From Escherichia coli (GTDB lineage Bacteria > Pseudomonadota > Gammaproteobacteria > Enterobacterales > Enterobacteriaceae), in NCBI RefSeq assembly GCF_024502345.1, contig NZ_JALDNN010000001.1: a stretch of DNA of 64,000 nt. One strand, 5' to 3'. Below are positions 16,180 to 46,752 of this stretch, piece by piece. The position numbers were made by a program, and so were the translations under genes. The first letter of the stretch is position 1. Every line of letters begins with the position of its first letter. Below the pieces are notes generated by a model. The model saw nothing but the letters and a program-made list of their open reading frames with translations. It had not been told where the DNA came from and did no database searches.

Positions 16180-16191
16180 GGAAATCTGAAC

Positions 16192-16503: not shown

Positions 16504-16549
16504 CACGGCTGCCCCCCAACAACATTTTTGACTGAGAAGGAAAAATACC

Positions 16550-17020
16550 ATGCGATTCATGCACGCCATCCTGTCAGCAGGATTACTGACCTTTGCCATC
16601 ACGGCACAGGCGGTCCCCAATATGTGGAGCAGTGGCTTCGGTATGGGCGTCACCGAGTACATCATCACCAGCCCGGAAAACGTGATGATGAACCTGAACT
16701 GCACCGGCAACCCTGACGACCAGAATATCCTGCAGCATCACGTCATGCTCACCCTGCCTGACGGCAGCGGTGCCGATTCACAGGATGAGAAAACCGCCAT
16801 CACCGTCGTCACGGATGACCAGACGTTCCCCCTGCCGTCCTCTCTGGGCTGGCGTAACGGCGACAACGCCTGGCTGTCGTTCATTGATGCCATCAGAAAA
16901 GCAACGTCGTTTGAGATTTACGTCAACGACAAACAGGTGGGGCACTTTACCCCTTCGGCTGGAAACGTTCACAAGGTTCTGGCTGATATGCCCGAATGCA
17001 CGACACTGACCGCCGGGTAA
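16550..17020 (+). CDS. secreted hypothetical protein
   Basis: N-terminal signal peptide (MRFMHAILSAGLLTFAITAQA). Confidence 0.55.
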   Translation: MRFMHAILSAGLLTFAITAQAVPNMWSSGFGMGVTEYIITSPENVMMNLNCTGNPDDQNILQHHVMLTLPDGSGADSQDEKTAITVVTDDQTFPLPSSLGWRNGDNAWLSFIDAIRKATSFEIYVNDKQVGHFTPSAGNVHKVLADMPECTTLTAG

Positions 17021-17068
17021 CCCGGCGCATCCCCGGTTTACAGCAAAATCAATCAAGGACAATACGAT

Positions 17069-17581
17069 ATGACCGACATTTCGACACTCAGCCAGCGACT
17101 GACGACGCCAACCCTGCATTTTGTTCTACTCACCGTCGCCACCTGCGGCATCTGGCCGTTACTGTGGCTGTACCGAAAACAGCAGATTATCAGCGACACC
17201 ACCGGATATCCGGTTTGCGGCAATCTGTTTATCATCTGGCTCGCCGTCTGTTTTGGGCTCGGACGACAGTTCGGCGTGATGGCCTCACCGGACCTGGCGG
17301 GCTACTACACGGGCAGCGATACACTGTTGGCCTTAAGCGGCATTCTGTCGCTCACCTGCGGCGTGATGTACATCGTCTGGGCCTTTAAGGCCAGAGCAGC
17401 ACTGCGACACTATGCGCTGAACACCTTCCGGTTTGACCTGAAGATGAATGCGTTTTATACCGTGGTGCTCAACGTCTTCTACATTACATACTGCATCAAC
17501 GATATGCCGCAGGCACTGGCGAAGCACCGCATTATTCATGGTCAGGCCCCTGTGCCGCCGGAGTCTCCGTCACCGCAGTAA
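17069..17581 (+). CDS. inner-membrane hypothetical protein
   Basis: Multiple TM helices. Confidence 0.55.
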   Translation: MTDISTLSQRLTTPTLHFVLLTVATCGIWPLLWLYRKQQIISDTTGYPVCGNLFIIWLAVCFGLGRQFGVMASPDLAGYYTGSDTLLALSGILSLTCGVMYIVWAFKARAALRHYALNTFRFDLKMNAFYTVVLNVFYITYCINDMPQALAKHRIIHGQAPVPPESPSPQ

Positions 17582-17663
17582 CGCAGCTCTCCTCTTATTA
17601 TCCGGCCGGGGCATTCCTGTGTGCCCCAGATTCATCCGGATCCCCCCTCTGAGATTTGACCCA

Positions 17664-17885
17664 ATGACATTACTGAAAATCGTGCTCAACACCCTGCGTC
17701 AGGTGCTGACGTGGTGCGCCAGCAGCCGGGCGCAGCAGTTTGTGGAAGACCACTTCCGCGAAGAAGGCTATGACGAAGACAGTATTTACATCGCCAGACA
17801 GGCGGCAACCCTGCTCGCAGGTGCCTTAATCACAGCGCTCATGGAACAGATACTGCAGCTTATTGCCACACACTTAACCCACTGA
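17664..17885 (+). CDS. hypothetical protein (73 aa)
   Basis: Start taken at the Met that does not overlap the upstream gene (track ORF 17448..17885 is a longer alternative). Confidence 0.4.
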
Positions 17886-17940
17886 TGCCCTGCTCACTGA
17901 GCGGGGCATTTTGTTTTATGCCATTCATCAGGAACTGAAT

Positions 17941-18174
17941 ATGCAAGTCACTGACGATACGTCGTTACCGCCAGGGCAATTCACCCGCCGACAGGCTGAA
18001 GCCGTGGTCACGCTTTACCACAACGTCACTATAGAAGATGACCAGGGTACGCACTTTCGGCTGGTTATTCGCGACAGCGAGGGGACGTTAATCTGGCGGG
18101 CCTGGAATTTTGAAGCCAGTGCCGGGGAATGGCTTAACCGCTATCTGCTCAGCCACGGGATCCCCAAACACTGA
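17941..18174 (+). CDS. DUF905-family protein (YkfF-like)
   Basis: …[38 protein letters not shown]… ; paralog of 44225..44458. Confidence 0.75.
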
Positions 18175-18206
18175 CACACCACAGCTTAACCCAATAGCGA
18201 CCACAC

Positions 18207-18247
18207 AAAAAAGCCATGCTCCCACAGGAGCATGGCTGTTTTGTTTA
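18207..18247 (+). terminator. putative rho-independent terminator
   Basis: Stem AAGCCATGCTCC / GGAGCATGGCT followed by GTTTTGTTT. Confidence 0.55.
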
Positions 18248-18277
18248 TGCCGTTAAATCAACAATAAGGAATTTACC

Positions 18278-18673
18278 ATGAGACTAGCCAGCCGCTTTGG
18301 ACGGACAAACCAGATCCGTCGCGATCGTCCGTTAACCCGCGAAGAACTGATGCAGGTCGTTCCCAGCGTATTCAGTGCAGATCGCCACGGTTCCAGGAGC
18401 GAAAAATACGCTTACATACCCACCATTACTCTGCTCGAAAATCTTCAACGCGAAGGCTTTGAACCCTTCTTCGCCTGCCAGTCACGCGTACGCGACCCTG
18501 ACCGCCGGGAGCACACCAAACATCTGCTGCGCCATCTTTGTAGACCGGAGAATGATGTTTGGATGAAAGCGAGTTTTGGTACCCTCATCATTGAGGGTAC
18601 CAACAGCAAAATACTCGGCGAATGCTATTGTCTAAGCACAGCGCCAAGCCTTAGCGGCACGAATAGTTGTTAA
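18278..18673 (+). pseudogene. DUF932-family (YafZ-like) gene, 3'-truncated after about 86 codons
   Basis: First 86 aa colinear with the intact paralog at 44557..45375; similarity ends near 18537, where unrelated sequence and the RM cassette begin. Confidence 0.75.
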
Positions 18674-18675
18674 CC

Positions 18676-21414
18676 TTACTCAGCTTTAGCAAACTGCTGG
18701 GTGAAGTAAGCCAATGAATTAGCTTCTTTTACGGCATCATGCGGAATGAGTAAGTATTTCCAAGGTTTGCCACCGTGCTGTGCAAGGTATTCACTGGCAT
18801 GACTACACCATTTCACACCACTGCGGGCTTTTTCGGTGACTTCCTCATTCCAACTGCCGTCTTGGTTTTGATGTTGAGTACTTTTAGTTTCAATCATCAA
18901 TACATAGTCGGCGGTTTCAGCAACGAAATCCGGCACGTATTCAGGATGCTCGCTACCGCGTTTGTAGTACATCTTGAATTGGCCTTTGGCAGGCTTAAAC
19001 CACTTCTCGCAGTCGCGTTCTAAAATCACCGCAAAACGGCGCTCAGTGTCTGAATCAAACTTTTGCAATGGGTATAGACAACGGCTAAAGCCGCCAAAGA
19101 GCATTTGTTTGATGCGACTGACATCGCGTACTGTATCACGGTAGCTTTGCACCGGCTGGTCTTGCGCTATGGTGTAAGCGCAGTCACGTAAGGTACTAAA
19201 GCCACTGCGTACATCGACGACGTACTCGGTTGCTTCTTCAAAGAAGTGGTTGTTCAGTTGCGCATGAATTAACTTCGCAATCGCATCACTCTGGTTTTGC
19301 AGAATGTTCTCAACCACATCGTCGTCGTTTTCAGCGGCCAGTGTATTGACAGCTTGAGTGGCTAGGTCAAACAAAAGTTCAGCTTGCTCGTCGTAAGGAA
19401 TATCGTCGTAATCGAACAGCTTCTTCAAAATATAGTTTTGTTTCACCGGCTCGTAGTTGCCCGAATCGCCTTCGCCACGAATGGTTTGGTGATTGTCTTG
19501 CAGGCTTTGTTGAATCAGAGTTCGGTCGATAGGTTTTAAACCTTTAATGGCAGCAATGTCCAAATCGAACGGGTGATAGCCGGTACGTACTTCACCTGAT
19601 GGTGAAACAATAATACGCGGAATATCTATGGTGTTATCCACCGTGAGCTGGGTGACTTGCTCAACAATCGCCGCAATATCCACCGATTCTTCAGTAAATA
19701 GCTCCCGTTGCTCTTGGGTTAACTGAGCTTTTACTTGTTCGGTGATCTGTGCTTTTACCTCAGTCGTTAACAATGCTTTGCTGGTCGGCGCATCGGTAGG
19801 GCGTGTTTGATATTGCTTGATCACGTCCAATGCAGCGCGGGCAACGGTTTGTTGGTTAGGCGTGGTATAAGTGGCTTTAGGTTCTTGTACCTCACGGTTA
19901 CCGTCTGCACCGGTTGCGGTTACACCTGAACCAGTCAGTTGCTGCTCTAGGTTCGATTTAACCTGCACACTTTGTTTGGTTACATCGTCTTCTGGGCGAT
20001 CTAATACGCGTGTTTTCAGGCGCAGTGGGTTATTCGGGTCGTTAGCCTCATCAACAATTTCTTGGAATTTGTCGTGCGCAACAATGCTCAGCGTATCGAC
20101 GGCTTCAACACCTGTACGTTTGCCATAAGGTAAACGCAAACCACGGCCAATTGACTGTTCAATTAGGGTTCTGGCGTTGGCTGCACGTAGTGGCACAATG
20201 GTGTACAGGTTAGTAACGTCCCAACCTTCTTTCAGCATGTTAACGTGAATGACGATCTCGGTTGGCTCATCGACATGCTCAACATTGAGCAGTGCTTGAA
20301 TAGTTTCTTCTTCTTTTTTACTGCTATCCACTTGAATGACTTTGCCACGGTAGCGGCCGTCAAACACTGTTTCAAGTTTGGTTAAAAGCTCTGCTGCATG
20401 CGTGGTATCACGGGCAATCACCAACATAAAAGGCTTAACTAACTTAGCATCGTTTTCATGTGCATAAGTGATTAAATCCACCTTGGTTTGCTCATGTAAA
20501 CGAATACCGTCCATTAACTTAATGGTTTCTAGTTCGTCTTTATCATATTGGCTGGCATCAAAGTTACGCTGAGTAACAACGGCAGGCTCTTTAACAAAAC
20601 CATCATCCATGGCACAGGCCAATGGGTAATCAATCACCACATTTTTAAAGTGCACAGGGCCACGACTTGATTCGGTAAATGGTGTGGCCGTTAGCTCTAA
20701 TGCGAATAGTGGATTAAGCTCATTGAGCGCACGCATACCGGCATCGGCACGATAGCGATGCGATTCGTCCATCAGCAGCACTAAGTCAGGTAAGTTCGAT
20801 AGATACTCAAAGTAGCTTTCGCCTAGGGTTTCCGCTAAACGCTTAATACGCGGGGCTTTGCCTCCACGTACTTCGGTGTTAATTTTCGCGATGTTAAACA
20901 CATTGATCCGAACCGAACCAAATAGATCGCCCATGACTTGTGCGCCGCGGCTCTCATAGTTATCACCGGTGATCACTTCTGGCGGTGCTAGCACAAAATC
21001 GGTAATGCCTTTAAACACGTACTTCGGTGAGGCGGGCGAGAAATCGCTGATCAGCTTTTCATAAATAGTCAGGTTAGGTGCCAACACAAAATAATTGCGA
21101 ATGCCATGTACCTGATACAAATAGGTAATAAACGCCCCCATCAAACGGGTTTTACCTACACCTGTTGCCAAGGCAAAACACAGTGAAGGAAAGTCACGTT
21201 CAAAATCGCTGAGCTTAGGAAACTGCGCTTTTAAGGTTTCTAATAGCTCCGGCACATCGCGTTTTGGGTTCAGTAGTTTGTGCTCAGAAGCACTAATCGC
21301 CACTGCCAACGCACGCAGCGAATCTTGCTGCGGCTGGCGTAAGCTTAAACGGCCAATAATATTATTAATGGCACGTAATTGGTCGGGTTTTAAGCTTGAT
21401 AAATCCATGGTCAT
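18676..21414 (-). CDS. Type III restriction enzyme Res subunit (SF2 helicase + PD-ExK endonuclease)
   Basis: Helicase motifs I ATGVGKT, II DESH, VI QSIGRGLR; C-terminal PD…ETK (YVPDFVAETADYVLMIETK); directly downstream of the Mod gene. Confidence 0.85.
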   Translation of the reverse strand: MTMDLSSLKPDQLRAINNIIGRLSLRQPQQDSLRALAVAISASEHKLLNPKRDVPELLETLKAQFPKLSDFERDFPSLCFALATGVGKTRLMGAFITYLYQVHGIRNYFVLAPNLTIYEKLISDFSPASPKYVFKGITDFVLAPPEVITGDNYESRGAQVMGDLFGSVRINVFNIAKINTEVRGGKAPRIKRLAETLGESYFEYLSNLPDLVLLMDESHRYRADAGMRALNELNPLFALELTATPFTESSRGPVHFKNVVIDYPLACAMDDGFVKEPAVVTQRNFDASQYDKDELETIKLMDGIRLHEQTKVDLITYAHENDAKLVKPFMLVIARDTTHAAELLTKLETVFDGRYRGKVIQVDSSKKEEETIQALLNVEHVDEPTEIVIHVNMLKEGWDVTNLYTIVPLRAANARTLIEQSIGRGLRLPYGKRTGVEAVDTLSIVAHDKFQEIVDEANDPNNPLRLKTRVLDRPEDDVTKQSVQVKSNLEQQLTGSGVTATGADGNREVQEPKATYTTPNQQTVARAALDVIKQYQTRPTDAPTSKALLTTEVKAQITEQVKAQLTQEQRELFTEESVDIAAIVEQVTQLTVDNTIDIPRIIVSPSGEVRTGYHPFDLDIAAIKGLKPIDRTLIQQSLQDNHQTIRGEGDSGNYEPVKQNYILKKLFDYDDIPYDEQAELLFDLATQAVNTLAAENDDDVVENILQNQSDAIAKLIHAQLNNHFFEEATEYVVDVRSGFSTLRDCAYTIAQDQPVQSYRDTVRDVSRIKQMLFGGFSRCLYPLQKFDSDTERRFAVILERDCEKWFKPAKGQFKMYYKRGSEHPEYVPDFVAETADYVLMIETKSTQHQNQDGSWNEEVTEKARSGVKWCSHASEYLAQHGGKPWKYLLIPHDAVKEANSLAYFTQQFAKAE

Positions 21415-21435
21415 TATAATTATCCTTATTAACCG

Positions 21436-23142
21436 TTAATCTTGCGCTGCATCGTCATCGGCAGACGCATCGTCAGTTAGGTTTGCCACGTTTAACGAAT
21501 AATCGTCCTGACCAAATTGGCACTTGTCTAAAATGGCTTTTGGCAGTTTTTTCAAGGTTAAATTGGTAAAACGACCTGGCTCGCAGCGAAATGCACCACA
21601 CATAACCAGTAAAGTTCGGTCACTGCCAACTTCTTCTGACAGCGCTTCTAATTTATCTACCGATAAGCTTTGTGTGGTGACATAAATATGATCCGTCTCG
21701 GTTGAATAACCGTGATCCCACCAATTCACTTCCGATGGCGCATAGGTAAAACCTTCCAGCTTACAAACGGCTTCGGCGAGCATTTCTGGGTTGTACTCTT
21801 TATTGATCACTTCCAAGCCAAACTTATCTTTCACAATTAAGGTCGGGGCAAGTTTGTAATAGCGGAAGCCACCGCCACCTTGCCAGTTTACAGACTTAGA
21901 AATACCACCTTGATCTTCGCCATCAATCACTTTTTGCAAGCGCGGGATAATATGGGTATGACAATGATCACCTAGCTCGACCGAGATCCAACGTCTTTTC
22001 ATCTTGTGAGCTACAGCAGCAGTAGTTCCCGAACCACCGAATGAATCAAAGACTAAATCGCCTTCTCGCGTACACATTTCGAAAATCCGCTTCAAAAGCG
22101 CTTCGGGTTTTTTTCCATTTTTGAAACTAACGCCGCCTTCATTTGCTATTCCATTCCAACTAATGTCAGTCCAAACATCAGTTATTAGTTCAGCAGGTTG
22201 CATCTCACCGTCAATTTCCAAAAGCCTATTGGAGTAAAAGACCATTTGCCTACCATTTGCGATATAAAAGCCTTCGACATCCTCATTTGGATGTACATAA
22301 ACCTTATCCCTATCTTTCTTTGACTTCTCGATAGTTTCTTTTCTCTTTATTTTAGCACCACCACCAATTGCAACGGATTGAAATACACGTTCTGCATTAT
22401 CAATTGCGAATTGTGCTAATTCATCATCAAATGTATCAGGCAGTTTTTTCTTGGCTTCTTTTGTATCTTTATAGCCATTGGCCTTTGCAAACGCATCGGC
22501 AATACCGCACCACGTCCAACTTTTATAATGGTCATCTGGGTTTAATAGATATTTGTTATATCCCGTATCATATCCTTTAGGTATATAGATTTTGTTAAGC
22601 GGTTTCTGGGTGCGATCTTTTGCGTATACAAGCAAAAAGTTTACTGTGGAGAAAACTGTGGCCCCTGTTGCCTTAAAGCCTGAAGGGTCATTTGTGGTCA
22701 TCGATATGGTATTTAACTGATTTGCACGACCAAAAATCTCGTCCATCAAAACTTTTAAATAAGCCATTTCGCAGTCATCTAAGTGAACGAATATTACTCC
22801 ATCATCACTTAGTAGATTACGAATTATTTCTAACCTATCCCTCATTAAGCCCAGCCAAATGGAATGCTCCAGACCATCATCATAGTGCTCAAAAGCACTT
22901 CCGGTATTGAATGGTGGGTCTATGTAAACACACTTCACTTTGCCTGCATATTCTTGCTCTAGCGCCTTCAATGCCAATAAGTTATCGCCAAAAATCAGTT
23001 TATTATCAAAAATATCGTTTTCGGTCACTTTTTGGCTGGCGTGATAAGACTTGCTCGGGTCTTCTAACAAAATGCGCGGCTCTAACTTTTTGCGCTCGTT
23101 TTTGCCTATCCAGGTCAGTTCTAATTTGGTTTTGCTCATCAT
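21436..23142 (-). CDS. Type III R-M Mod subunit (N6-adenine/N4-cytosine class DNA methyltransferase)
   Basis: Motif IV DPPFN and SAM motif FDSFGGSGTT; mod-res gene order with a 21-bp gap. Confidence 0.85.
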   Translation of the reverse strand: MMSKTKLELTWIGKNERKKLEPRILLEDPSKSYHASQKVTENDIFDNKLIFGDNLLALKALEQEYAGKVKCVYIDPPFNTGSAFEHYDDGLEHSIWLGLMRDRLEIIRNLLSDDGVIFVHLDDCEMAYLKVLMDEIFGRANQLNTISMTTNDPSGFKATGATVFSTVNFLLVYAKDRTQKPLNKIYIPKGYDTGYNKYLLNPDDHYKSWTWCGIADAFAKANGYKDTKEAKKKLPDTFDDELAQFAIDNAERVFQSVAIGGGAKIKRKETIEKSKKDRDKVYVHPNEDVEGFYIANGRQMVFYSNRLLEIDGEMQPAELITDVWTDISWNGIANEGGVSFKNGKKPEALLKRIFEMCTREGDLVFDSFGGSGTTAAVAHKMKRRWISVELGDHCHTHIIPRLQKVIDGEDQGGISKSVNWQGGGGFRYYKLAPTLIVKDKFGLEVINKEYNPEMLAEAVCKLEGFTYAPSEVNWWDHGYSTETDHIYVTTQSLSVDKLEALSEEVGSDRTLLVMCGAFRCEPGRFTNLTLKKLPKAILDKCQFGQDDYSLNVANLTDDASADDDAAQD

Positions 23143-23196
23143 TTCTGTGCTCTTATCTTGTGTTCGTTACTTAGCGTTATTATTCTACAGCAATCG

Positions 23197-25062
23197 CTAC
23201 GCAGGTTGTGCTTGGCGATTACTCGCTTGGGTGTTTTGCCCTTGTCGGCGTTGCGCTTGCTCGGCTAAGTAACTGAATAAATTCTGGTTGTGTGGGTCGT
23301 TCGCTTGAAGGCGTTCTTGTTTTGCTACAACTGCCGGGCTTTCTGCCAAGTTTAAATGGCTAATCCACACCGTTTGCATTAAACGTGCGGTATCGCCCAA
23401 GCGTTTGAAGTATGCGTGCGGCGCACTGCCTAATACTAATGCCGTAAAACTATCAAAAAATTGCTGACGAAGTTCATCAAAAGCGTGGCTGATTAATCTT
23501 TTAAATGCCGCTTGCTCGGTAATCTCAGGAGCCGTAATAGCGCCTTCAAACTGCGCCATTAATAGCGTGGTTATGCAGTAAGTAAAATGTCGATATACCA
23601 GTTTTTCTGGGCTTGGACTACTGCGCTCTGCGTTTGTACATAAGACTTGAATAGCCAGATAGCAGTTCACCGCGTTAATGGCGACGGCCCCCTGTAAATC
23701 TGTACTAAAAACGGCTTGGTACTCGGCACTTTCTTGGTTAGTGAATTTGCTTGGCTCTACTTTTAGCTGATAAGGCACGCGTACATCACCGTGCATACAG
23801 GCCAATGCTTTGGCCAAGGTGTCGATAGTAATGCTGCGAATACCCGCTGCTGCGCTTTGTTGTGGGCGGTAGAGATATTCAACACCAAACATTTTCATCT
23901 CTTGGCGCAAGCGTTCTTGGGTATCATCCAGCGCGGCAAAGTTGGCTAAATCGACCGGGTTTTGCAGGTTACGCGCTTTGGTTACTTGTTTGTGAAATGC
24001 ATCGTTACCCGTGTTGATAATGGTTACCATCACTTGAGCTTGGCTGATGTCTGCATTTGGGTTTTCACGCATAAACTGTGCAGCACTAGCAATGGTTTGT
24101 GCACCGTTAACGACGGACAGGCCATCGACTGCAACATGCTTGCTACCTGTGTGGCCTCTAATATTCCCTTTTGGTTTTACTGCATTGCCAACCAGAGTAA
24201 TGCCATTGTTAAGATAAATAAAATTTTCCGGCTCATGTAAAAGGGTGTCTTTAATCGCCCTATTTACCCCACGTCTGCCAGCACCAATAAAATAGCGAAT
24301 ATTTTTCTCGTAAAGTTTACGGTCATGAGTAGTGTGCAAGGCAATTAAATCGGTTAGCTTGGCGATACCAAATACGACTTTTCGTGGTTGTTCTTGCACT
24401 CGGAACTTATATACAGCGACACGCTCGTTTACCGTATCAACCGCATGTTCACTGCGAAGAGCCTGCTCAACATCGGTGGCGGTGTATTCTTGATATTCAG
24501 GTGCGATTTGCTCTTCACCTTCATCAATCAGCTCTTGGATCGCTGGTTGTAGGTAGTTTTGTGCTTGTATGGTAATGCCATTACCTGTGTATGCGACAAG
24601 CAGTTGAATTCTTTCGCACTCGTCTAATGCGGCTTCAATATTTGCTTGAAGGTTTTGAACATTTTGATTAAAGCGGTGAAATTGCTTGTTTAAAAGTAAC
24701 TTTACACCCTCAATAAAAGCCTGTGCTTCGCCCAATTGGAATTGCGCATCTTCCTTCATTTTTGACTGTACTAAGTACAGAGTCTGATCAGCTTCGTGAT
24801 AATAAATTGCATCAATACCATGGTCTTCATAGTCGTCCACCACAGCTTTTGCTGCGGTCACTACGTCTAAATCGAATTTTTGCTGTAGTACGAATGCGCT
24901 AAAAGCCCTGGAAATTTGCTTTTTAGGTTTATCTTCTCGCCCACCTTGCCCAAGCAATGGCGGTAAATGCGGCACAAAACGCTGCTGTAGCAGTTCTTTT
25001 AATAGGGTAAGAAATTGTGGTTGTAATGCTGCCAAGTGAGTTGTCCTTATTTTTATTGCCAA
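23197..25062 (-). CDS. large abortive-infection-like protein, tentatively AIPR family (621 aa)
   Basis: Size and context (between an Abi_2 gene and an RM system) and a remembered VVNGAQT-like block; family assignment from memory only. Start overlaps the upstream stop by 10 nt. Confidence 0.4.
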
Positions 25063-25994
25063 ATTGGCCGCGCTTGCCAGTCGGCTGGAAAGCCCATGCG
25101 GTCAATGTCTATTTGGTGATGATTTATCAATTGGATGAGTCGTTGCTTCCAGTGATGTTCACCACTGATCACATCCATGAGGTAGCCCAACATCACCAAG
25201 GTGTTATAAATTTTTCGTAAACGCCGGTCGCTATCGGGCAGGTTTTGCAAGCTTTGAATCAGTGCCGGTTCACCATGGCGTGGCAGTACCGTGGTTTTAA
25301 TAAAATCACGGTTCCATAGCCTAGAATGATGGGCACTTAAATTGCGCACTAGCGACAAATGCTCACAGAATGAGGTAAGAGTTTTTTCATCTAGGCCGTA
25401 GCTTTTGCTTATTACCTGGCGGTCGGCACGCAGCTTGATATTGCTGTACCAACAGGAAAGTTGCCCCATGGTTAACAGCTCAACACAGGCCCAAATAGGG
25501 GGTAGTGGCTCTTGATATTTTTGCGTAAGGTGCTTGATGAACTCTTCACGACTGCACTTTACCTCACCCGTGAGTTTGCCAAGGCTACTGGCGTATTCTA
25601 ATAAATCACCAAAGAGCTCTGGTTTTAAATGAGGGTGCGCGGTTTGGTATTTTTGGCTCAACTGATACGCAATTTGTGTGCGTAATGACACCTCAAAACG
25701 CTCGATGGCATCTAGCACTAACAAACGTAGTTCACGGTCGAAAACATATAGGCTTAGGACTTGGTCAAACTGAGTACCTGTGATAAACGTATGACTGGCA
25801 TGATCTTGCTCATAGGGCAAACAATAAGCCGCAAAACGATAGTAGTTCAGCTGTGCTAAGTAAAACTCAGCTTTCGGGACATCACTGATCACTAGGCCAC
25901 GTTGTTGCAACAAGCGTACTTGATCGCTAAAGCTTGTAGGGGGCTTGGTAAAAGCGACTTTAGGGACTGGTTTGCGGCTCATTTGACCTCCCAT
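25053..25994 (-). CDS. Abi_2-family (AbiD/AbiF-like) abortive infection protein
   Basis: 313 aa with N-terminal …[17 protein letters not shown]… signature, which I recall as typical of Abi_2 proteins. Confidence 0.55.
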
Positions 25995-26139
25995 GCAACA
26001 GAAGATCGAATTTTGCGGGCCCCAGAAACGAGTAACCCCTCACAGGGCGCTGATCTGACGGGTAGCGGGAGGGGTGTTGTTGCAGTGATCATAGCCCCAA
26101 ACTGAAAAAAGTCAATGCTGGCGTTGAAATTGATTGTCA

Positions 26140-29034
26140 TCATTGAACCGTCCACCCAATGGTAAATAGGGTCTCTTGGCTGGTTTTTTTATTCAGTTTG
26201 CCTTCTAAGCTTTCAATCAGCTGTTCGCGCTTTTCGTCCACTTCATCTTGTTTATCAAACAGTTCACGGCGGCTTTTATTGCGCTGACTTTCTAACTGGC
26301 GCTGCTGTTTTTGCAGGGCAAGTTTCTCTTCCAGGGTTGGAGCTATTTTGGCTTCGCGGCGTACTTGCTTGATTTGCTTATCAAGCTCTTTTATAGATTG
26401 TTCAAGCCCTTCTTTTAAATCGTCTGCCCAAGAATCTAACTTGTTTACCTCTTGCTCGAAGAAGCTGAGATTACGATCGTTAACTTGCTTTTCGATGCCT
26501 AGTCTCGACTGCTGTAACGCATGCTGCAGCGCATATTGATAGCCAGGATATAAGGCGGCAAGTTCTTGCTCACTTACTTCACTTTGCACACAGGCACTAA
26601 GCTGCATCAGCTTTTGCACGACTTCACTTGGTAGCGGATGACCATGTTCATCTTGCGCGGCGAACAATAAATGGTCTTCGCTACGCTCCAATGATTCGAC
26701 ACTAAATTTTTGTAGGCTTAGTACACCTGACAAACCCACTAAGGGTTCTAGCATACTGATTTTTGTTTGGTGGTTGCTGTAATCAAAAATTACGCTGGCA
26801 ATGGGTAATTCACGTTGAAGCGCGTTGCTGATCACCCATTCACCCAGCGGGTGGGTGATACGATACACATGGGCATTGGCTAGTTTACCGGTTTCAATAC
26901 TGCCGCTTTGCTGTCCTCGGCGTACAAGTTGGTAGCTACCTGTAGGAGCCTGATTGATACTTTGATTAAGCGTAAAACTATGGTTGCTTGGGTCAATGTC
27001 TGCGATAGCTGCAAGTTCATGCGTACTGAGTTGCCAGAACCAACGGCCTACTTTATCGAGGCGTTGCTGCGCGGCATCTAGCTGAATTTTGAGTAAGTCG
27101 TGAATATCTTCATCGAAATTTTCCAGCAGCAGTTGCTGGGTCTCGCGCATTTTTTGGTTGATGTCGGCTTCTAGCTCTTTTTGCAATTGATCAAAAGCTG
27201 CTTCTATTTCCGCCGGTTGCCGACAAGTCTCGTATATATTTTGGATGCGTTTTTCAAAATCAATACCAGATTCAATGCTGCCTAGCACATCGTCCGATGC
27301 ACCAAACACGCCATCGAACAGATGGAATTTTTCAGTCAGTAACTCTAAAACACGCTGATCGGCTTTGTTGGCTTCGTTGAGGAAGTTGATCACCACAACA
27401 TCAAATTGCTGCCCATAGCGGTGACAACGGCCAATACGTTGCTCTACTCGTTGTGGGTTCCATGGTAAGTCATAGTTAATAAGTAACGAACAGAACTGTA
27501 AGTTAACCCCTTCTGCAGCCGCTTCGGTTGCGATCATAACTTCGGCATGATGGCGGAAGTAATCAATTAGGGCAGTACGGCGGTCAATTTGCGGTGAACC
27601 ACTCACCTTATCACTACCTTGGTTTTCAGCTAACCACTGCTGATAAACTTTGGTTGCTTCTGGATGGTTATTGCTGCCACTAAAGGTGACTAATTTATCA
27701 GCAAAGCCATTCGCCTCGAGGAAACGAGCTAGGTATTCTTGCGTGCGCTTCGATTCGGTAAAAATAATGACTTTACGTGGCGCCCCCATTTCCTCCATTT
27801 TGGCAAACCCTTGATTAAGCGCCGTTAGCAAGGCTTGGGTTTTACTGTCGGTGGTAATGGATTTAGCCTGCTCGATATAATGCTCAAGCTCGGCTATTTC
27901 AGCATTGAGTAACTCAAAGTCAATATCACTCTCAGGGGTATTGCTTTGTGTTTCTTCTACATACTCGCTGTACTCTTCTCCTAAATCATCACTCTCAACA
28001 AGCTCACTGATAATATCGAGGTCCGATTTAGCCTGTACTTTCAAGTCAACCAATCGGCGCTTTATAGTTTCGAGTGTGTTGAGCACTGCGTGCGAACTAG
28101 ATGCTAATAGCTTTCTCAGTATAAGGCCGGTTAAATGACGTTGGCTCTTGGGTAGTGCATAGCTCTCGTCCTTTTCCAATAAGGCACTAATACTTTCGTA
28201 AAGTGCCATCTCAGCATTAGAGGGTGTAAACGGTACGGTGAGTGTTTGACGTTGGGTATAGCGGACGTATTCGAGTACATCTTTGCGCAAGGTACGCTGA
28301 ATAAACCCGGTAAGTCGTTTCTTTAAATGCCCTAGCGCACTTTCGTTATTGACAAAGTGTTGTTTGAAGCTTCGCTCATCGCCGAAGATTTGATCGTCGA
28401 TAATGGTTGAAAGTCCATACAATTCCATGAGCGAGTTTTGTAAGGGTGTTGCAGTAAGTAATAGCTTTTTACTGCCATCTAATGCGCGGCGTAGCGTTTG
28501 ACCCATTTTATTGCTGCTACGATGTGCATTACGTAGCTTGTGCGCTTCGTCGATGACGACAATATCCCATGGCTCTAGCATTAGCTGCGTTTCCATTCTC
28601 GCAGCATAGTGATAGGACATAATAGAAACGCAGTGATTAGCTAGCGGGTTAGTTTGACCATTGTTAACACTAATGCGCCACGTTTTTGCATCAAGCACTT
28701 GCGTTGGTAAATTAAACTTATCGCCCAATTCCTGCGCCCACTGGCGTCGCAATGACGCCGGGCAGATGATCAATATGCGGCGTTTACGCTCTGCCCAATA
28801 CTGTGACAGTACTAAGCCTGCTTCAATAGTTTTCCCTAAGCCCACTTCATCAGCGAGTACAACACCTTTGCTTAACGGGTTGTTGAGCGCAAAAAGTGCC
28901 GCATGAATTTGGTGCGGATTGAGATCAACACTGGCATCAAAAAGAGATTGAGACAATTTATCAACGCCATTTTCAGCGTGGCGAATGGTTAATTCCTGCG
29001 CAAAGTATTTTGCTTGATAATCAGTTATTACCAT
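26140..29034 (-). CDS. SNF2-family helicase (about 965 aa) with C-terminal coiled-coil-rich region
   Basis: Motifs I LADEVGLGKT, II VIDEAHKLRN, III LLLTATPLQN, VI QRIGRCHRYGQ. Start set at MVITDYQ (29034) so that overlap with the upstream HTH gene is 14 nt rather than 95. Confidence 0.85.
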   Translation of the reverse strand: MVITDYQAKYFAQELTIRHAENGVDKLSQSLFDASVDLNPHQIHAALFALNNPLSKGVVLADEVGLGKTIEAGLVLSQYWAERKRRILIICPASLRRQWAQELGDKFNLPTQVLDAKTWRISVNNGQTNPLANHCVSIMSYHYAARMETQLMLEPWDIVVIDEAHKLRNAHRSSNKMGQTLRRALDGSKKLLLTATPLQNSLMELYGLSTIIDDQIFGDERSFKQHFVNNESALGHLKKRLTGFIQRTLRKDVLEYVRYTQRQTLTVPFTPSNAEMALYESISALLEKDESYALPKSQRHLTGLILRKLLASSSHAVLNTLETIKRRLVDLKVQAKSDLDIISELVESDDLGEEYSEYVEETQSNTPESDIDFELLNAEIAELEHYIEQAKSITTDSKTQALLTALNQGFAKMEEMGAPRKVIIFTESKRTQEYLARFLEANGFADKLVTFSGSNNHPEATKVYQQWLAENQGSDKVSGSPQIDRRTALIDYFRHHAEVMIATEAAAEGVNLQFCSLLINYDLPWNPQRVEQRIGRCHRYGQQFDVVVINFLNEANKADQRVLELLTEKFHLFDGVFGASDDVLGSIESGIDFEKRIQNIYETCRQPAEIEAAFDQLQKELEADINQKMRETQQLLLENFDEDIHDLLKIQLDAAQQRLDKVGRWFWQLSTHELAAIADIDPSNHSFTLNQSINQAPTGSYQLVRRGQQSGSIETGKLANAHVYRITHPLGEWVISNALQRELPIASVIFDYSNHQTKISMLEPLVGLSGVLSLQKFSVESLERSEDHLLFAAQDEHGHPLPSEVVQKLMQLSACVQSEVSEQELAALYPGYQYALQHALQQSRLGIEKQVNDRNLSFFEQEVNKLDSWADDLKEGLEQSIKELDKQIKQVRREAKIAPTLEEKLALQKQQRQLESQRNKSRRELFDKQDEVDEKREQLIESLEGKLNKKTSQETLFTIGWTVQ

Positions 29035-29227
29035 CCAACACCCCTTTTCCTTGAGCTGCTTGCGTACTGATCCATTCTTCAAGATCGGATTGTTTAAAGC
29101 GCCAAGCATTGCCAACTTTAAAAGCAGGAATTTTATGTACCGCTGCTAGACGGTAAACAGTTCTCTCATTTACCTTCAAATACTCAGCTACTTCTTTAAT
29201 TGTCAGAACGGTATCAGTCATTTTCAC
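29021..29227 (-). CDS. small helix-turn-helix DNA-binding protein (excisionase/MerR-like HTH)
   Basis: LTIKEVAEYLKVNERTVYRLAAVHKIPAFKVGNAWRFKQSDLEEWI is a typical HTH_17-type pattern; overlaps the SNF2 start. Confidence 0.7.
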   Translation of the reverse strand: MKMTDTVLTIKEVAEYLKVNERTVYRLAAVHKIPAFKVGNAWRFKQSDLEEWISTQAAQGKGVLDGNN

Positions 29228-29433
29228 TCGGCCACTTTGAAAAGTGCGTCAATTATCTAATGCGAGTGTCAAAATAGTACAAATAAGTACATGAATCAAT
29301 CTTATTCGGCACTTGCCGGAGCTCCTTGGCTTTAATCCTCATCAATTTTAGGTACAGTTTTCAGGCTCGGGGATAAAGTATAAAGAATGTCGTACTGCCG
29401 CTGCCAGAGCAATATTCCCCCCTGCTGGTTGTA

Positions 29434-40615: not shown

Positions 40616-41503
40616 TTGTTAACTTCCTTGCATATTCGATTTCCATGTGATAGTGAAAATCACCAGAAGAGAATGCGATTGAGGCGTAATCAGATGAAAC
40701 AATATGAAGATGGTTATAACGTGAATGGATATAGCTGGGAAAATGAAACAATTGAGTATTTGTTGAATGATAAACAACTGACAGATAATCACATACCTGA
40801 ATGGGTTAAAAAAAATGAAATTGCAGCATTCTGGTTCTGGTTAGTTATAATTAACACAGATCCCAAACTCCTTGGGGTTCGTAATGAATTAGGGTTCAAT
40901 ACAGCCATGATGGGGCTGATTCCTGCGGGGAGTATACCCATAACAACAATTCCTTCAGATCATGAAATGAGACTGGATGTTATAAGCAAATGGATTAATG
41001 CATTAATCCTTGACAATCAATCAGATTGGTTCATCTCAACAATGCATCAAAACTGGCTGCAGATCGAAAAGAGAAACGAAGCCAAATGGCTTAAAAAGAA
41101 TACAGAACAACTCGAATGGGCATGGAAATATATCAATGCACGCATCCCGCACACGTATCTTTCCTGGTTTTATCCTGTAAGTGATAACGAAAGATACATT
41201 GCTATCGTAGTTTTACTAAAAATTTTATTCCCCGCAGATACACCATACTTACAGCAGCCAAAAGTACTTCACTATGGGGTTGCCGCAAAAGAAAAATTTT
41301 TCGACAAGATGCACAATGCATTCCGAAAACAGTTTACCGACGGAAAAAAAGATAAGCGGGTACAAATCAACGTTAAAATATCATCAGATGCAAAACGTAC
41401 TCTGGACAGACTGACCAGAGAACTGAAAACAACACAACAGGCTGTCCTGGAACATCTGATTCAGAACCACAGGCTGGTGATTCAGAACCACAGACTGGAT
41501 TAA
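40616..41503 (+). CDS. hypothetical protein (295 aa), paralog of 13312..14280; follows a 1.6-kb repeat-rich non-coding region
   Basis: Shared FW.W block; C-terminal basic segment (…KRVQINVKISSDAKRTLDRLTREL…) may be DNA-binding. Confidence 0.55.
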   Translation: MLTSLHIRFPCDSENHQKRMRLRRNQMKQYEDGYNVNGYSWENETIEYLLNDKQLTDNHIPEWVKKNEIAAFWFWLVIINTDPKLLGVRNELGFNTAMMGLIPAGSIPITTIPSDHEMRLDVISKWINALILDNQSDWFISTMHQNWLQIEKRNEAKWLKKNTEQLEWAWKYINARIPHTYLSWFYPVSDNERYIAIVVLLKILFPADTPYLQQPKVLHYGVAAKEKFFDKMHNAFRKQFTDGKKDKRVQINVKISSDAKRTLDRLTRELKTTQQAVLEHLIQNHRLVIQNHRLD

Positions 41504-42447
41504 CTTTCACCACTTCTGCTCCTGGCGATTTTCTTCTTTTGGTAGTGTCTCCTGGCTGCGGATATCAGATACTTTTCCGTCATTTTGTTGCAGAACTCTT
41601 CAATGTAGTTAATCATTTTCTGGTGTGCTTTCAGCTTTTCTTCCCCGGGGGACGCTTTCAGATAAATGTCCTCCTTTTCCACAAGCGCATTGACAAACTC
41701 CCCTAAACATCCCTGGTTATAAAGCGACGTGAAAAACAACACATCCCCCAGTCTCTCCAGTAACTGTGGTTTATCCCCGAAATGTTTTTTTATACTTTCA
41801 AAAGGTTTTCTATTTTCCGGATCAAAAAAAACACTTAATCCCAGTCGCTTATATTCCTGGTAAAAAAGTTCAAACGTCGGGGATGCTGAACGGCAAATAA
41901 ACGAAGACTGCGCCCATGGATTAAAATCTGTGACACGCCTCCCCTCCCGCACTTCCTGTCGTGTCAGCGGTGGTTCAGCAAACCAGGCGTCCAGCTCAGC
42001 CGAATCGTTATCCCTGCTCAAAACCTCATACAAACTGCCCGTGAACGGTTGAGCCGTTTGTTTTGTTGCTTCGCCTTCTGATTGTCTGAATCCATCCACT
42101 TTTCTCCGGATATTACGCGGAATCAGCATAAAAGGCGGGACATTAAGTGATAAACGTTTACCCGTCATGCGATACCATTGACCTACCTCAACCTTAATCC
42201 GTGTATCTGACCTTAGCTCAAGTGCCATTATGCTAAGCAGGTACAGATAACGCACCGTATAACGATTAAAATGTTTCTCCGGATCAAACGATTCGGACCG
42301 TTCTCCTCTGTACACGACTCTGCTGCGCTTCAGTATTCGCAGAGTATATTTCCAGGCCGGACTTTTACAAATGGCGGTAACTCTGGCCTTATTAACAATG
42401 TCGCGTAATGCATCAATCTGTTGTGCAGTCATCTCTTCCCTCCACAC
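41500..42447 (-). CDS. hypothetical protein (315 aa)
   Basis: Complete ORF convergent with the upstream gene; no confident family. Confidence 0.45.
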   Translation of the reverse strand: MWREEMTAQQIDALRDIVNKARVTAICKSPAWKYTLRILKRSRVVYRGERSESFDPEKHFNRYTVRYLYLLSIMALELRSDTRIKVEVGQWYRMTGKRLSLNVPPFMLIPRNIRRKVDGFRQSEGEATKQTAQPFTGSLYEVLSRDNDSAELDAWFAEPPLTRQEVREGRRVTDFNPWAQSSFICRSASPTFELFYQEYKRLGLSVFFDPENRKPFESIKKHFGDKPQLLERLGDVLFFTSLYNQGCLGEFVNALVEKEDIYLKASPGEEKLKAHQKMINYIEEFCNKMTEKYLISAARRHYQKKKIARSRSGES

Positions 42448-42538
42448 TTTGCCACTCCAGATTTTTTCACGCCCATATTACCTGAATGATAAACCGGATT
42501 AGTGTGATCCGGTTCAGTGAAATCAACAGGATACCGGT

Positions 42539-43423
42539 ATGTCATTCAGCCATTCTTCCCTCTCCGCACAAGTGAAATCATATCTGACGTTTCTTCCTGA
42601 AGAAATTCGCCAGAAAATCCTTGAACATCTCCACGGTGTTATTCATTACGAGCCCGTAATTGGCATTATGGGTAAATCCGGCACCGGCAAAAGCAGTCTG
42701 TGTAATGCCATTTTTCAGTCCCGTATCTGCGCCACGCATCCCCTGAACGGCTGCACCCGCCAGGCTCATCGTCTTACCCTGCAGCTCGGTGAACGCAGAA
42801 TGACGCTGGTCGATATGCCCGGCATTGGTGAGACACCGCAGCATGATCAGGAATACCGGGAGCTTTACCGTCAGTTACTGCCGGAACTGGATCTGATTAT
42901 CTGGATCCTGCGGGCTGATGAACGTGCGTATGCTGCTGATATTGCCATGCATCAGTTTTTACTGAATGAAGGTGCAGATCCCTCGCGTTTTCTGTTTGTT
43001 CTCAGCCATGCCGATCGCGTGTTTCCTGCTGAAGAATGGAACGACACAGAAAAATGCCCGTCCCGTCAGCAGGCGCTCTCACTGGCGACGGTGACAGCCC
43101 GGGTGGCAACCCTGTTCCCTTCATCATTTCCGGTACTCTCCGTTGCCGCACCTGTCGGCTGGAACCTTCCGGCGTTTGTGTCGCTGATGATCCACGCACT
43201 GCCACCACAGGCAACCAGTGCGGTTTATTCACATATCCGGGGGGAAAACCGCTCTGAACAGGCCCGGAAACACGCACAACAGACTTTTGGTGAAACCATC
43301 GGGAAAAGTTTTGACGACGCCGTTGCCCGTTTCAGTTTTCCGGCCTGGATGTTACAGCTTCTGCGCAAAACCCGGGACCGCATTATCCACCTGCTGGTCA
43401 CGCTGTGGGATCACCTGTTCTGA
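42539..43423 (+). CDS. YeeP/YfjP/YkfA-family GTPase
   Basis: G1 motif GIMGKSGTGKSSL, G3 DMPGIGE. Confidence 0.8.
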   Translation: MSFSHSSLSAQVKSYLTFLPEEIRQKILEHLHGVIHYEPVIGIMGKSGTGKSSLCNAIFQSRICATHPLNGCTRQAHRLTLQLGERRMTLVDMPGIGETPQHDQEYRELYRQLLPELDLIIWILRADERAYAADIAMHQFLLNEGADPSRFLFVLSHADRVFPAEEWNDTEKCPSRQQALSLATVTARVATLFPSSFPVLSVAAPVGWNLPAFVSLMIHALPPQATSAVYSHIRGENRSEQARKHAQQTFGETIGKSFDDAVARFSFPAWMLQLLRKTRDRIIHLLVTLWDHLF

Positions 43424-43541
43424 ACGCCCCGGAGTCCCCCGTGGCAACCGTATACCTTTACACGACAACGGATTACGGTAACCACTGCCGTATACCGTCT
43501 GTCATTATCAATAACACGCTCTTTAATTTCAGAGGTCAGTC

Positions 43542-44219
43542 ATGAATACCAGAATTCTTTTTCCCCTGCTGTTCACTGTGGCATCATTCTCCGCCTCCGC
43601 CGGCAACTGGGCTGTCAAAAACGGCTGGTGTCAGACCATGACGGAAGATGGTCAGGCGCTGGTAATGCTGAAAAATGGCACGATTGGTATTACCGGCCTG
43701 ATGCAGGGATGCCCGAATAGCGTACAGACGCTCCTGGGCAACCGTATCAGTATTAACGGTAACCTGATCCCCACATCACAAATGTGTAATCAGCAGACAG
43801 GATTCAGGGCTGTTGAGGTGGAAGTCGGACAGGCGCCGGAAATGGTCAAAAAAGCCGTTCACTCCATAGCAGAGCGTGATGTGTCAGTTTTACAGGCATT
43901 TGGTGTACGAATGGAATTCACCCGCGGTGATATGCTGAAGGTCTGTCCGAAATTTGTCACATCACTTGCCGGTTTTTCCCCGAAACAGACACCCGCCATT
44001 AATAAAGATTCCGTCCTGCAGGCTGCCCGGCAGGCATACGCCCGGGAATATGACGAGGAAACAACAGAAACCGCTGATTTTGGCTCTTACGAAGTAAAAG
44101 GCAATAAGGTTGAGTTTGAAGTATTCAATCCTGAAGACCGTGCGTACGACAAAGTGACCGTCACGGTTGGTGCTGACGGTAATGCCACCGGCGCCAGCGT
44201 TGAATTTATCGGAAAATAG
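43542..44219 (+). CDS. secreted hypothetical protein
   Basis: Signal peptide [20 protein letters not shown]. Confidence 0.55.
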
Positions 44220-44224
44220 CCGGT

Positions 44225-44458
44225 ATGTCGGACTGCCACCCTGTTTTATTGCCCGAAGGCCCTTTCTCACGCGAACAGGCGATGGCTGTCACAACAGCTT
44301 ACCACAATGTGCTTATTGAAGATGATCAGGGAACGCATTTCCGGCTGGTTATCCGCAATGCTGAAGGGCAGCTACGCTGGCGGTGCTGGAATTTTGAACC
44401 TGATGCCGGAAAACAGCTAAATCCGTATCTCGCCAGTGAGGGAATTCTCAGGCAATAA
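44225..44458 (+). CDS. DUF905-family protein (YkfF-like)
   Basis: …[38 protein letters not shown]… ; paralog of 17941..18174. Confidence 0.8.
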
Positions 44459-44480
44459 ACGTCTTCATTTCATCCATCAG

Positions 44481-44512
44481 GCCACGTCTTCTCCGGGAGA
44501 CGTGGCTTTTTC
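44481..44512 (+). terminator. putative rho-independent terminator
   Basis: Stem GCCACGTCT / AGACGTGGC followed by TTTTT. Confidence 0.6.
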
Positions 44513-44556
44513 ATTTATTACACCAGTAAATCTTAATCACCAATAAGGAGCAAATC

Positions 44557-45375
44557 ATGCGATTAGCAAGTCGTTTTGGTTATGCGAACCAGATACGCCG
44601 TGACCGCCCCTTAACTCGCGAAGAACTGATGCAGGTCGTCCCCAGCGTATTCGGGGAAAATAAGCACACATCCAGAAGCGAGAACTATACCTGGATCCCC
44701 ACCATCACCGTGCTGGAAAGCCTGCAGCGGGAAGGCTTTCAGCCCTTCTTTGCCTGCCAGACCCGCGTACGTGACCCGGGCCGCCGGGGGTATACCAAAC
44801 ACATGCTGCGTCTGCGCCATGACGGGGAGATAAACGGACAACATGTCCCTGAAATCATCCTACTGAACTCCCATGACGGTACCTCCAGCTACCAGATGCT
44901 GCCGGGTTACTTCAGGTTCGTCTGCCAGAACGGCTGCGTCTGTGGTCAGTCTCTGGGGGAAGTGCGTGTTCCACACCGGGGAAATGTGGTGGACAGAGTC
45001 ATTGAAGGGGCTTACGAGGTGGTGGGCGTGTTTGACCGGATTGAGGAAAAGCGTGATGCCATGCAGTCGCTGGTCCTGCCGCCACCGGCACGCCAGGCGC
45101 TGGCACAGGCGGCGCTGACTTACCGTTATGGTGACGAACATCAGCCCGTCACCACCGCTGACATTCTGACACCACGACGCAGGGAGGATTACGGTAAGGA
45201 CCTGTGGAGTGCTTATCAGACCATCCAGGAGAATATGCTGAAAGGCGGGATTTCCGGGCGCAGCGCAAAAGGAAAACGTATCCATACCCGGGCCATTCAC
45301 AGCATCGGTACCGACATTAAGCTCAATCGCGCATTGTGGGTGATGGCAGAAACGCTGCTGGAGAGCATGCGCTGA
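44557..45375 (+). CDS. DUF932-family protein (YafZ-like), intact copy
   Basis: 272 aa; N-terminal 86 aa nearly identical to the truncated 18278 copy. Confidence 0.8.
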   Translation: MRLASRFGYANQIRRDRPLTREELMQVVPSVFGENKHTSRSENYTWIPTITVLESLQREGFQPFFACQTRVRDPGRRGYTKHMLRLRHDGEINGQHVPEIILLNSHDGTSSYQMLPGYFRFVCQNGCVCGQSLGEVRVPHRGNVVDRVIEGAYEVVGVFDRIEEKRDAMQSLVLPPPARQALAQAALTYRYGDEHQPVTTADILTPRRREDYGKDLWSAYQTIQENMLKGGISGRSAKGKRIHTRAIHSIGTDIKLNRALWVMAETLLESMR

Positions 45376-45466: not shown

Positions 45467-45952
45467 ATGACAACCGTTTCGCATAATTCCACCACACCTT
45501 CTGTTTCCGTAACCGCTGCATCAGGGAATAACCCACCTCAGCTGGTTGCCACTCCCGTCCCTGATGAACAGTGCATCAGCTTCTGGCCGCAGCACTTTGG
45601 CCTCATTCCACAGTGGGTGACCCTGGAGCCCCGTATCTTCGGCTGGATGGACCGTCTGTGTGAAGACTACTGCGGTGGTATCTGGAATCTGTACACCCTG
45701 AACAACGGTGGGGCATTTATGGCACCCGAACCGGATGACGATGATGACGAAACATGGGTACTGTTCAATGCCATGAACGGTAACCGCGCTGAAATGAGTC
45801 CGGAAGCCGCCGGCATTGCTGCCTGTCTGATGACGTACAGTCATCATGCCTGTCGAACGGAGTGTTATGCCATGACGGTCCACTATTACCGGCTGCGGGA
45901 TTACGCCCTACAGCATCCGGAATGCAGCGCCATTATGCGCATCATCGACTGA
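45467..45952 (+). CDS. antirestriction protein (YfjX/YafX/KlcA-like)
   Basis: …FWPQHFGLIPQWVTLEPRIFGWMDRLCEDYCGGIWNLYTLNNGGAFMAP… is typical of the antirestriction family. Confidence 0.8.
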   Translation: MTTVSHNSTTPSVSVTAASGNNPPQLVATPVPDEQCISFWPQHFGLIPQWVTLEPRIFGWMDRLCEDYCGGIWNLYTLNNGGAFMAPEPDDDDDETWVLFNAMNGNRAEMSPEAAGIAACLMTYSHHACRTECYAMTVHYYRLRDYALQHPECSAIMRIID

Positions 45953-46444
45953 ATGGAGACAGGGACAATGCAGCAGCTTTCCTTTCTGCCCGGAGAGATG
46001 ACGCCCGGCGAGCGCAGTCTCATTCTGCGGGCCCTGAAAACCCTGGACCGCCATCTTCATGAACCCGGCGTGGCCTTCACCTCCACCCGTGCGGCACGGG
46101 AATGGCTGATTCTGAACATGGCGGGACTGGAGCGTGAAGAATTCCGGGTGCTGTATCTGAATAACCAGAATCAGCTGATTGCCGGTGAGACCCTCTTCAC
46201 AGGCACCATCAACCGCACGGAAGTCCATCCCCGGGAAGTGATTAAACGCGCCCTGTATCACAATGCCGCAGCCGTGGTGCTGGCACACAATCACCCGTCA
46301 GGTGAAGTCACACCCAGTAAGGCTGACCGCCTTATTACGGAACGTCTGGTACAGGCACTGGCCCTGGTGGATATCCGGGTGCCGGACCATCTGATAATCG
46401 GTGGCAGCCAGGTTTTCTCCTTTGCTGAACACGGTCTGCTTTAA
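45953..46444 (+). CDS. RadC-like JAB-domain protein (YeeS/YfjY/YkfG-like)
   Basis: JAMM motif …HNHPSGEVTPSKAD… . Confidence 0.85.
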   Translation: METGTMQQLSFLPGEMTPGERSLILRALKTLDRHLHEPGVAFTSTRAAREWLILNMAGLEREEFRVLYLNNQNQLIAGETLFTGTINRTEVHPREVIKRALYHNAAAVVLAHNHPSGEVTPSKADRLITERLVQALALVDIRVPDHLIIGGSQVFSFAEHGLL

Positions 46445-46512
46445 CCCGTCACCATCACAACCACATCACACTTGTTTTCACTTTTATCTTCTGTCTTCAG
46501 AGGTATCCCATC

Positions 46513-46734: not shown

Positions 46735-46752
46735 GTCAGAAAGGGGATTCTG

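Follow-up and report, generated by a model that had tools for sequence, protein, structure and literature searches.

We analyzed a stretch of 64,000 nucleotides of Escherichia coli DNA, which we call the window, and which contains two gene pairs that each consist of a DUF905 gene followed by a DUF932 gene. The first DUF905 gene (YkfF-like) lies on the plus strand at positions 17941-18174 (Pfam PF06006, E-value 5.4e-35) and corresponds to WP_009652474.1 in E. coli EH09-18-41 (EH09). It is followed by an open reading frame of 131 amino acids (18278-18673, plus strand, from the ORF listing) that starts as DUF932. Only codons 1-85 of this frame (18278-18533) belong to DUF932; they align to profile positions 2-52 of 227 in Pfam PF06067 and match the intact EH09 protein at 85/85 amino acids. 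The DUF932 homology stops at 18531-18533, i.e., at codon 85, and the last 45 codons (18534-18673, plus strand) are unrelated read-through DNA from downstream of a res gene. This out-of-context tail recurs identically in 2014C-3011 and APEC E16002, where it is located 3' of res, and neither alignment nor Pfam detected DUF932 similarity in it. A scan for promoters and terminators around the junction found hairpins on both sides of DUF905 only, and none at the joint.

The second pair is complete. Its DUF905 gene (YkfF-like) is at 44225-44458 on the plus strand (PF06006, E-value 1.2e-31; PDB entry 2HJJ, YkfF, E-value 1e-28), and its DUF932 gene (44557-45375, plus strand) encodes 272 amino acids that cover profile positions 1-227 of 227 in PF06067 (E-value 9e-51). 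A PDB sequence search with DUF932 gave no match, i.e., there is no solved relative that is detectable by sequence. The collection has the exact protein of this second DUF932 copy in 85 indexed blocks, and among the matches listed 6 of 6 are in pheU or pheV islands. An earlier note on this DNA had described two same-strand pairs about 26 kb apart, the first with a truncated DUF932 and the second with an intact one. Both parts of this description are borne out: the ORFs are exactly where the note placed them, all are on the plus strand, the copies are 26,279 bp apart, and the Pfam coverage (2-52 versus 1-227 of 227) agrees with a first copy that is cut after codon 85.

The DNA that ends inside the first DUF932 gene (6114-18533, plus strand) consists of cargo and backbone of a CP4-like island, which we call island A. 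A megablast search of 5,426 complete E. coli genomes showed that 6114-18533 matches an island of E. coli EH09-18-41 (15001-27420 of that locus) at 99.95% over 12,421 nucleotides, and that 8790-18533 is 100% identical to plasmid pMB18312_1. In EH09-18-41 and pMB18312_1, the order of genes is DUF905, an intact DUF932 of 272 amino acids, antirestriction, RadC, DUF987, YeeU/CbtA, DUF5983, DUF957 and DUF4942. In EH09 the island is located at pheV (gsp flank), not at pheU. The island A side occurs in only three records among the 5,426 genomes, and both records inspected (EH09-18-41 and pMB18312_1) have an A-type module of their own after it, not a B-type module. In the window, the 3' module from antirestriction to DUF4942 is missing after the first pair. 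A tblastn search with the intact A-type DUF932 recovered residues 1-85 at 18278-18532 with 100% identity, and found no second A-type copy of residues 86-272 in the window, where only the second DUF932 gene matches, at 71% amino acid identity. To the left, positions 1-6146 hold pieces of IS3, IS30 and IS66 together with a group II intron reverse transcriptase (ltrA), and form the left border of the island A segment; many E. coli chromosomes and plasmids match this cluster at 97-99%.

Immediately beyond the truncated DUF932 is a series of minus-strand genes. Those encoding a type III restriction subunit (Res helicase, 912 amino acids, 18676-21414; PADLOC REase_III, E-value 9e-191, and Pfam ResIII) and a type III methyltransferase (Mod, 568 amino acids, 21436-23142; PADLOC MTase_III, E-value 7e-285, and Pfam N6_N4_Mtase) are adjacent, which identifies a type III restriction-modification system. 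They are accompanied by genes for an AIPR/AbiU-like protein (23197-25062; Pfam AIPR, E-value 1e-38, and PADLOC AbiU, E-value 1e-37), an Abi_2/AbiD-like protein (25053-25994; Pfam Abi_2, E-value 2e-51, and PADLOC AbiD, E-value 3e-71), a DrmD-like SNF2 helicase (26140-29115; PADLOC DrmD, E-value 2e-208, and Pfam SNF2-rel_dom and Helicase_C) and a small HTH_17/mad1-like regulator of 68 amino acids (29021-29227; Pfam HTH_17, E-value 2e-19, and PADLOC mad1, E-value 3e-10). With the start that PGAP assigns in relatives, the SNF2 helicase has 964 amino acids and its gene ends at about 29034. PADLOC and Pfam thus confirm the earlier note's defence cassette between the pairs. The small HTH regulator is annotated as 'mads1' by PGAP in relatives, and a full MADS system was considered and rejected: among the mad models, mad1 alone matched, by this 68-amino-acid protein, and the other cassette proteins match models of type III restriction-modification, AbiU/AIPR, AbiD and DrmD, not further mad genes.

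In 34 E. coli genomes there is a defence cassette that matches the region from 18524 to about 29376 at 99.8-99.9%. Normally it adjoins the integrase at the start of such islands; w264 and 2014C-3011 have it near the island's 5' end, with about 4 kb between it and the tRNA and integrase. Other contexts are selC islands, an IS66-flanked site in APEC and, for res/mod, Salmonella and Klebsiella plasmids. In 2014C-3011 the right end of the cassette is another deletion joint, and no tRNA-Sec-derived repeat was found there.

Several further observations concern variation in the cassette. The res/mod segment at 18524-21993 is 97.5% identical on Salmonella plasmids; 32 plasmid records match it, mostly from Salmonella and Klebsiella and mostly conjugative, and these plasmid-borne copies imply that plasmids and chromosomal islands exchange the type III system. 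Cassettes of the 2014C-3011 type lack about 1.2 kb of the AIPR gene (window positions 23837-25016), so that a hypothetical protein of 206 amino acids (24674-25294 of the 2014C-3011-type locus) takes the place of one of 612; the cassette therefore has AIPR-plus and AIPR-minus forms. In the metagenome contig ZHAN20-1 scaffold_618 (10399-13135), which has the same junction as the window, res is split into ORFs of 565 and 362 amino acids while mod is intact, and this sequence suggests a natural loss of restriction subunit function.

The remainder of the locus is a second island, island B (29354-49861, plus strand), which is of the pheU type. It comprises backbone, cargo and a complete 3' module, and is 93.6-96.9% identical to the pheU island of E. 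coli M159-1. After the second DUF932 gene, the rest of the conserved module (45467-49597) is complete and was identified with Pfam, all on the plus strand: antirestriction (45467-45952), RadC (45953-46444), DUF987 (46513-46734), CbeA (46753-47784), CbtA (47874-48251), DUF5983 (48248-48670) and DUF4942 (48755-49597). The CbeA ORF is 343 amino acids long with the CbeA domain at residues 240-338 only, and relatives are annotated at this locus with a separate upstream hypothetical gene and an antitoxin of 122 amino acids. Within the cargo, a minus-strand ORF of 292 amino acids (37011-37889) is called 'restriction endonuclease' in M159-1 and had no Pfam or PADLOC match at an E-value below 1e-5.

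The island ends in an attR site at 49708-49729 (plus strand), 111 nucleotides past DUF4942. This site, TTCGATTCCGAGTCCGG-CACCA, is a copy of the 3' end of tRNA-Phe, compared to which it is one G short; the same 17-mer is present at the tRNA-Phe gene and the attR of M159-1. It is the only copy in the window, with no second att copy found between the repeats. No tRNA gene or integrase ORF was seen within the window, and the left end of the island is outside it; in M159-1, w264 and 2014C-3011, the tRNA and a P4-type tyrosine integrase are at the other end of the island.

On the far side of attR, a single IS1 (49862-50629 and flanks) adjoins dcuS. Compared to the M159-1 pheU region, about 10.7 kb is gone, comprising an integrase remnant, cadC-cadB-cadA, dtpC, lysU, ghoST, yjdJ and yjdI, and the sequence suggests that the lysine decarboxylase locus was lost in association with IS1. 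Layouts with tRNA-Phe, IS1 and dcuS are found in some complete E. coli genomes. Farther along, at 60511-60614, there is an imperfect inverted repeat with 42-nucleotide arms that are 79% complementary and a spacer of 20 nucleotides.

We next consider how the two pairs are related. A repeat search reported them as a two-copy direct family with a spacing of 26,279 nucleotides, and blastp between the copies gave E-values of 7e-47 for DUF932 and 1e-31 for DUF905, so the pairs are homologous and their similarity is not due to chance. The level of this similarity is lower than the earlier note had supposed. Its 'high identity' over the first 86 DUF932 codons overstates what is a moderate resemblance, namely 67/86 amino acids, or 194/254 nucleotides (76.4%) in register and without gaps over codons 1-85. 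The DUF905 copies agree at 48/77 amino acids and at 63% of nucleotides in an ungapped comparison, and both genes together have about 77% identity over 526 nucleotides in a gapped alignment. The longest perfect runs between the copies are 23, 12 and 9 nucleotides, where the 12-nucleotide run follows the 23-nucleotide block after one mismatch.

The islands themselves are diverged as well. Upstream of the pairs, islands A and B have colinear, diverged homologues that encode YagK/YfjJ, an AlpA-like HTH protein and a Gp2-like protein. This colinear backbone homology includes a second diverged direct repeat (10211-10386 and 30924-31099, 77% identity, spacing 20,713 nucleotides), which falls within the AlpA-like HTH genes of the two islands. 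Full A-type and B-type 3' modules are 68-76% identical in nucleotides, which argues that no duplication occurred in situ. The shared gene order and orientation of the pairs might seem to favor a segmental duplication inside this chromosome, with the first copy decaying later. However, each copy has much closer relatives elsewhere (99.95% to EH09 for A and 93.6-93.8% to M159-1 for B) than the 76% that connects them to each other, and the genes that flank the two pairs differ. The parentage of each copy thus refutes a duplication, to which we assign practically no probability.

To locate the point at which the two parentages meet, we aligned the window with EH09, 2014C-3011 and APEC E16002. The window tracks island A through ...ACATCTGCTGCGCC, to position 18533, and tracks the cassette lineage from CTGCTGC(A)CCATCTTTGT, from position 18524. 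The fusion junction (18524-18533) therefore consists of a microhomology of 10 nucleotides, CTGCTGC(G/A)CC, recognized by alignment and sequence, that is common to the DUF932 gene of island A and to the DNA downstream of the cassette's res gene. 2014C-3011 and APEC E16002 match the window only from 18524; leftwards, at least 93 nucleotides are unrelated and lead towards a gene for a hypothetical protein of 176 amino acids. Because the leftward DNA in the cassette lineages is unrelated, the breakpoint is specific to the lineage of the window.

The junction persists across samples. At least 24 contigs, which represent at least 8 samples, have the identical chimeric ORF of 131 amino acids. Each of the 8 places listed for it is from a different sample, and the match to the window there is 99.8-100% over as much as 20 kb spanning the junction. 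Since the junction is unchanged in all of these contigs, it is inherited and stable. The fusion of A, cassette and B was found in metagenome and Logan contigs, and its lineage has been seen only in ENA and Logan data; the combination is absent from all 5,426 complete E. coli genomes searched.

The range of contexts in which the cassette occurs (selC islands, the IS66-flanked APEC site and, for res/mod, the Salmonella and Klebsiella plasmids) could suggest that it is a mobile unit that was inserted into the intact DUF932 gene of a single island. After an insertion of this kind, one would expect the rest of DUF932 to follow beyond the cassette, yet residues 86-272 of the A-type protein are missing, and we found neither terminal inverted repeats nor a target-site duplication bounding the cassette. 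These absences point to an illegitimate, microhomology-mediated deletion, not to a cassette insertion. Moreover, in other genomes the cassette lineage runs past the breakpoint of the window, and on its right the cassette passes without a break into the backbone of island B; APEC E16002 shows the same, with an uninterrupted match of 97.8% to 18524-33525. The missing part of DUF932, the lack of repeats and the unbroken backbone largely refute the insertion of a mobile cassette, which we regard as highly improbable.

We consider it probable that the pairs are paralogous backbone genes of two old, diverged CP4-like island lineages that were fused by an old microhomology deletion, and that they are a stable by-product of island accretion. 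According to this proposal, each pair would mark where the conserved 3' module begins in one of two deeply diverged, tRNA-associated CP4-like islands (with P4-type integrases); the order of this module is DUF905, DUF932, antirestriction, RadC, DUF987, CbeA/CbtA, DUF5983 and DUF4942. Islands A and B would have been positioned head-to-tail at pheU (tRNA-Phe) in an E. coli-type chromosome, with the upstream island A at first complete. One illegitimate deletion at the microhomology would then have brought codon 85 of A's DUF932 next to the sequence immediately 3' of the type III res gene, at the integrase-proximal end of the downstream island B. With this deletion, the remaining module genes of A, the internal att site and the integrase region of B would have been lost, and the resulting composite island with its defence cassette would be expected to be stable.

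It is important to distinguish the parts of this history. The mosaic parentage, like the junction, is read directly from the alignments, and the absence of the 3' part of A's DUF932 and the recurrence of the junction in many samples are likewise observed. The tandem A-B ancestor at pheU is what we infer, since the composite island extends leftwards beyond the window, and so is the extent of the deleted DNA. The presence of one att copy in the window, with none between the repeats, fits the deletion model. In APEC E16002 the DUF4942 end of one island is located directly before another integrase, and such an arrangement is a tandem array. Against the proposal, we found no genome with an undeleted A-B tandem, and in EH09 island A occupies pheV instead of pheU.

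A very different role for the pairs would be that of recombinogenic direct repeats, between which RecA-dependent crossovers regularly delete the 26-kb interval and thereby generate cassette-plus and cassette-minus subpopulations. The earlier note had proposed that a crossover would delete everything in between, and the geometry does allow this: the repeats are direct and in register, and the interval of 26.3 kb includes the cassette. With the same orientation and a gap-free register over codons 1-85, an in-register crossover would remove 26,279 nucleotides and rebuild an intact, hybrid DUF932 gene, and the perfect block of 23 nucleotides, with 12 more past a single mismatch, is at the lower limit of usable length for RecBCD/RecA. 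The substrate is the part of the proposal that does not hold up. The note had itself named too low a nucleotide identity as what would speak against recombination, and the alignment, at about 76%, essentially gives such a value.

According to PMC8918686, RecA recombination in bacteria depends on perfectly matched minimal efficient processing segments (MEPS) of up to about 30 bp, and where mismatch repair is proficient, as opposed to cells that lack MutS/MutL, a divergence of about 20% makes it at least 10^4-fold less frequent. The single 23-nucleotide block of the pairs equals this minimum or falls short of it. This barrier of mismatch repair against homeologous repeats has been described before (Shen & Huang 1986; Rayssiguier et al. 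1989, as reviewed in PMC8918686). For repeats to be recombinogenic, one would look for an identity of roughly more than 90% over some hundreds of bases, and for several perfect blocks that reach the length of the MEPS (about 23-30 bp). Instead, the window has 76.4% over only 254 nucleotides (and 63% in DUF905), with one block of 23 nucleotides followed by runs of 12 and 9. In their divergence of about 24% and their single MEPS-sized block, the pairs resemble known homeologous direct repeats, and the rate expected for them is taken from the literature. The low identity and the single block make them very poor RecA substrates, and a deletion by homologous recombination, while geometrically possible, would be expected to be very rare.

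Other evidence also disfavors regular deletion. The junction is unchanged in the contigs described above, and of the three complete-genome records with the island A side, the two inspected have their own A-type module. We looked up three predicted hybrid DUF932 proteins (crossover after amino acid 10, 55 or 62, a set that includes the product of the block of 23 plus 12 nucleotides), and none was indexed; this exact-match search has low power, as it covers 3 of about 12 possible products. A hybrid DUF932 would differ from the second copy by less than 7%, and so would be hidden inside 90% clusters. It can also be reasoned that the loss of Mod along with Res may be counter-selected. The negative results among these points are of low power; taking all of them together, we think it very unlikely that the pairs act as recombinogenic repeats.

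A weaker version, in which homeologous deletion happens rarely and particularly in mutS/mutL mutators, has in our estimation a small chance of being correct. A related and very unlikely idea is that such rare homeologous or RecA-independent deletion (in mutators or under SOS) could serve as a heritable switch that sheds the cassette of type III restriction-modification, Abi and SNF2 genes along with 15 kb of island B cargo. If this were true, the switch would rebuild an intact hybrid DUF932 and would offer a built-in way to lose a costly defence.

Several diverged, paralogous copies of the module per chromosome are normal for the CP4 family, and mosaic or tandem islands are commonplace as well. 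The same conserved module is found in the E. coli K-12 cryptic elements CP4-6 (ykfF/yafZ/yafX/ykfG...), CP4-44 (yeeP-yeeS-yeeT-yeeU-yeeV) and CP4-57 (yfjP-yfjQ...yfjX-yfjY-yfjZ-ypjF), which share with the window DUF905 (YkfF), DUF932 (YafZ/YfjQ), antirestriction, RadC, DUF987 and the CbeA/CbtA toxin-antitoxin genes, as well as an upstream GTPase and a tRNA-derived att repeat. Unlike in the CP4 elements, there are here two copies in one composite island, 26 kb apart, one of which was cut by a microhomology deletion and fused to a defence cassette.

YkfF/YafZ and the CP4-44 genes have been discussed previously, and mosaic tRNA-linked islands carry genes for YkfF/YafZ, KlcA-type antirestriction, YeeU/YeeV and the inovirus Gp2 family (PMC6174562). 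The pheU, pheV and selC islands of E. coli and STEC are similar to our locus in their tRNA linkage and mosaic make-up, and island B matches the pheU and pheV islands of many strains. The difference from these known islands is the combination of A, cassette and B, which none of the complete E. coli genomes has. The locus is thus a further case of the well-known, ordinary mosaicism of islands.

The truncated DUF932 gene is accordingly best regarded as the scar of a fusion between two islands, not as a recombination device, and the main value of this finding is for annotation. Amino-acid-level repeats in island backbones should be checked for nucleotide identity before they are called deletion-prone. 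As to the island itself, the scar dates a deletion that would have removed an integrase and an internal att site, and that probably locked the defence cassette into a composite island that can no longer be separated.
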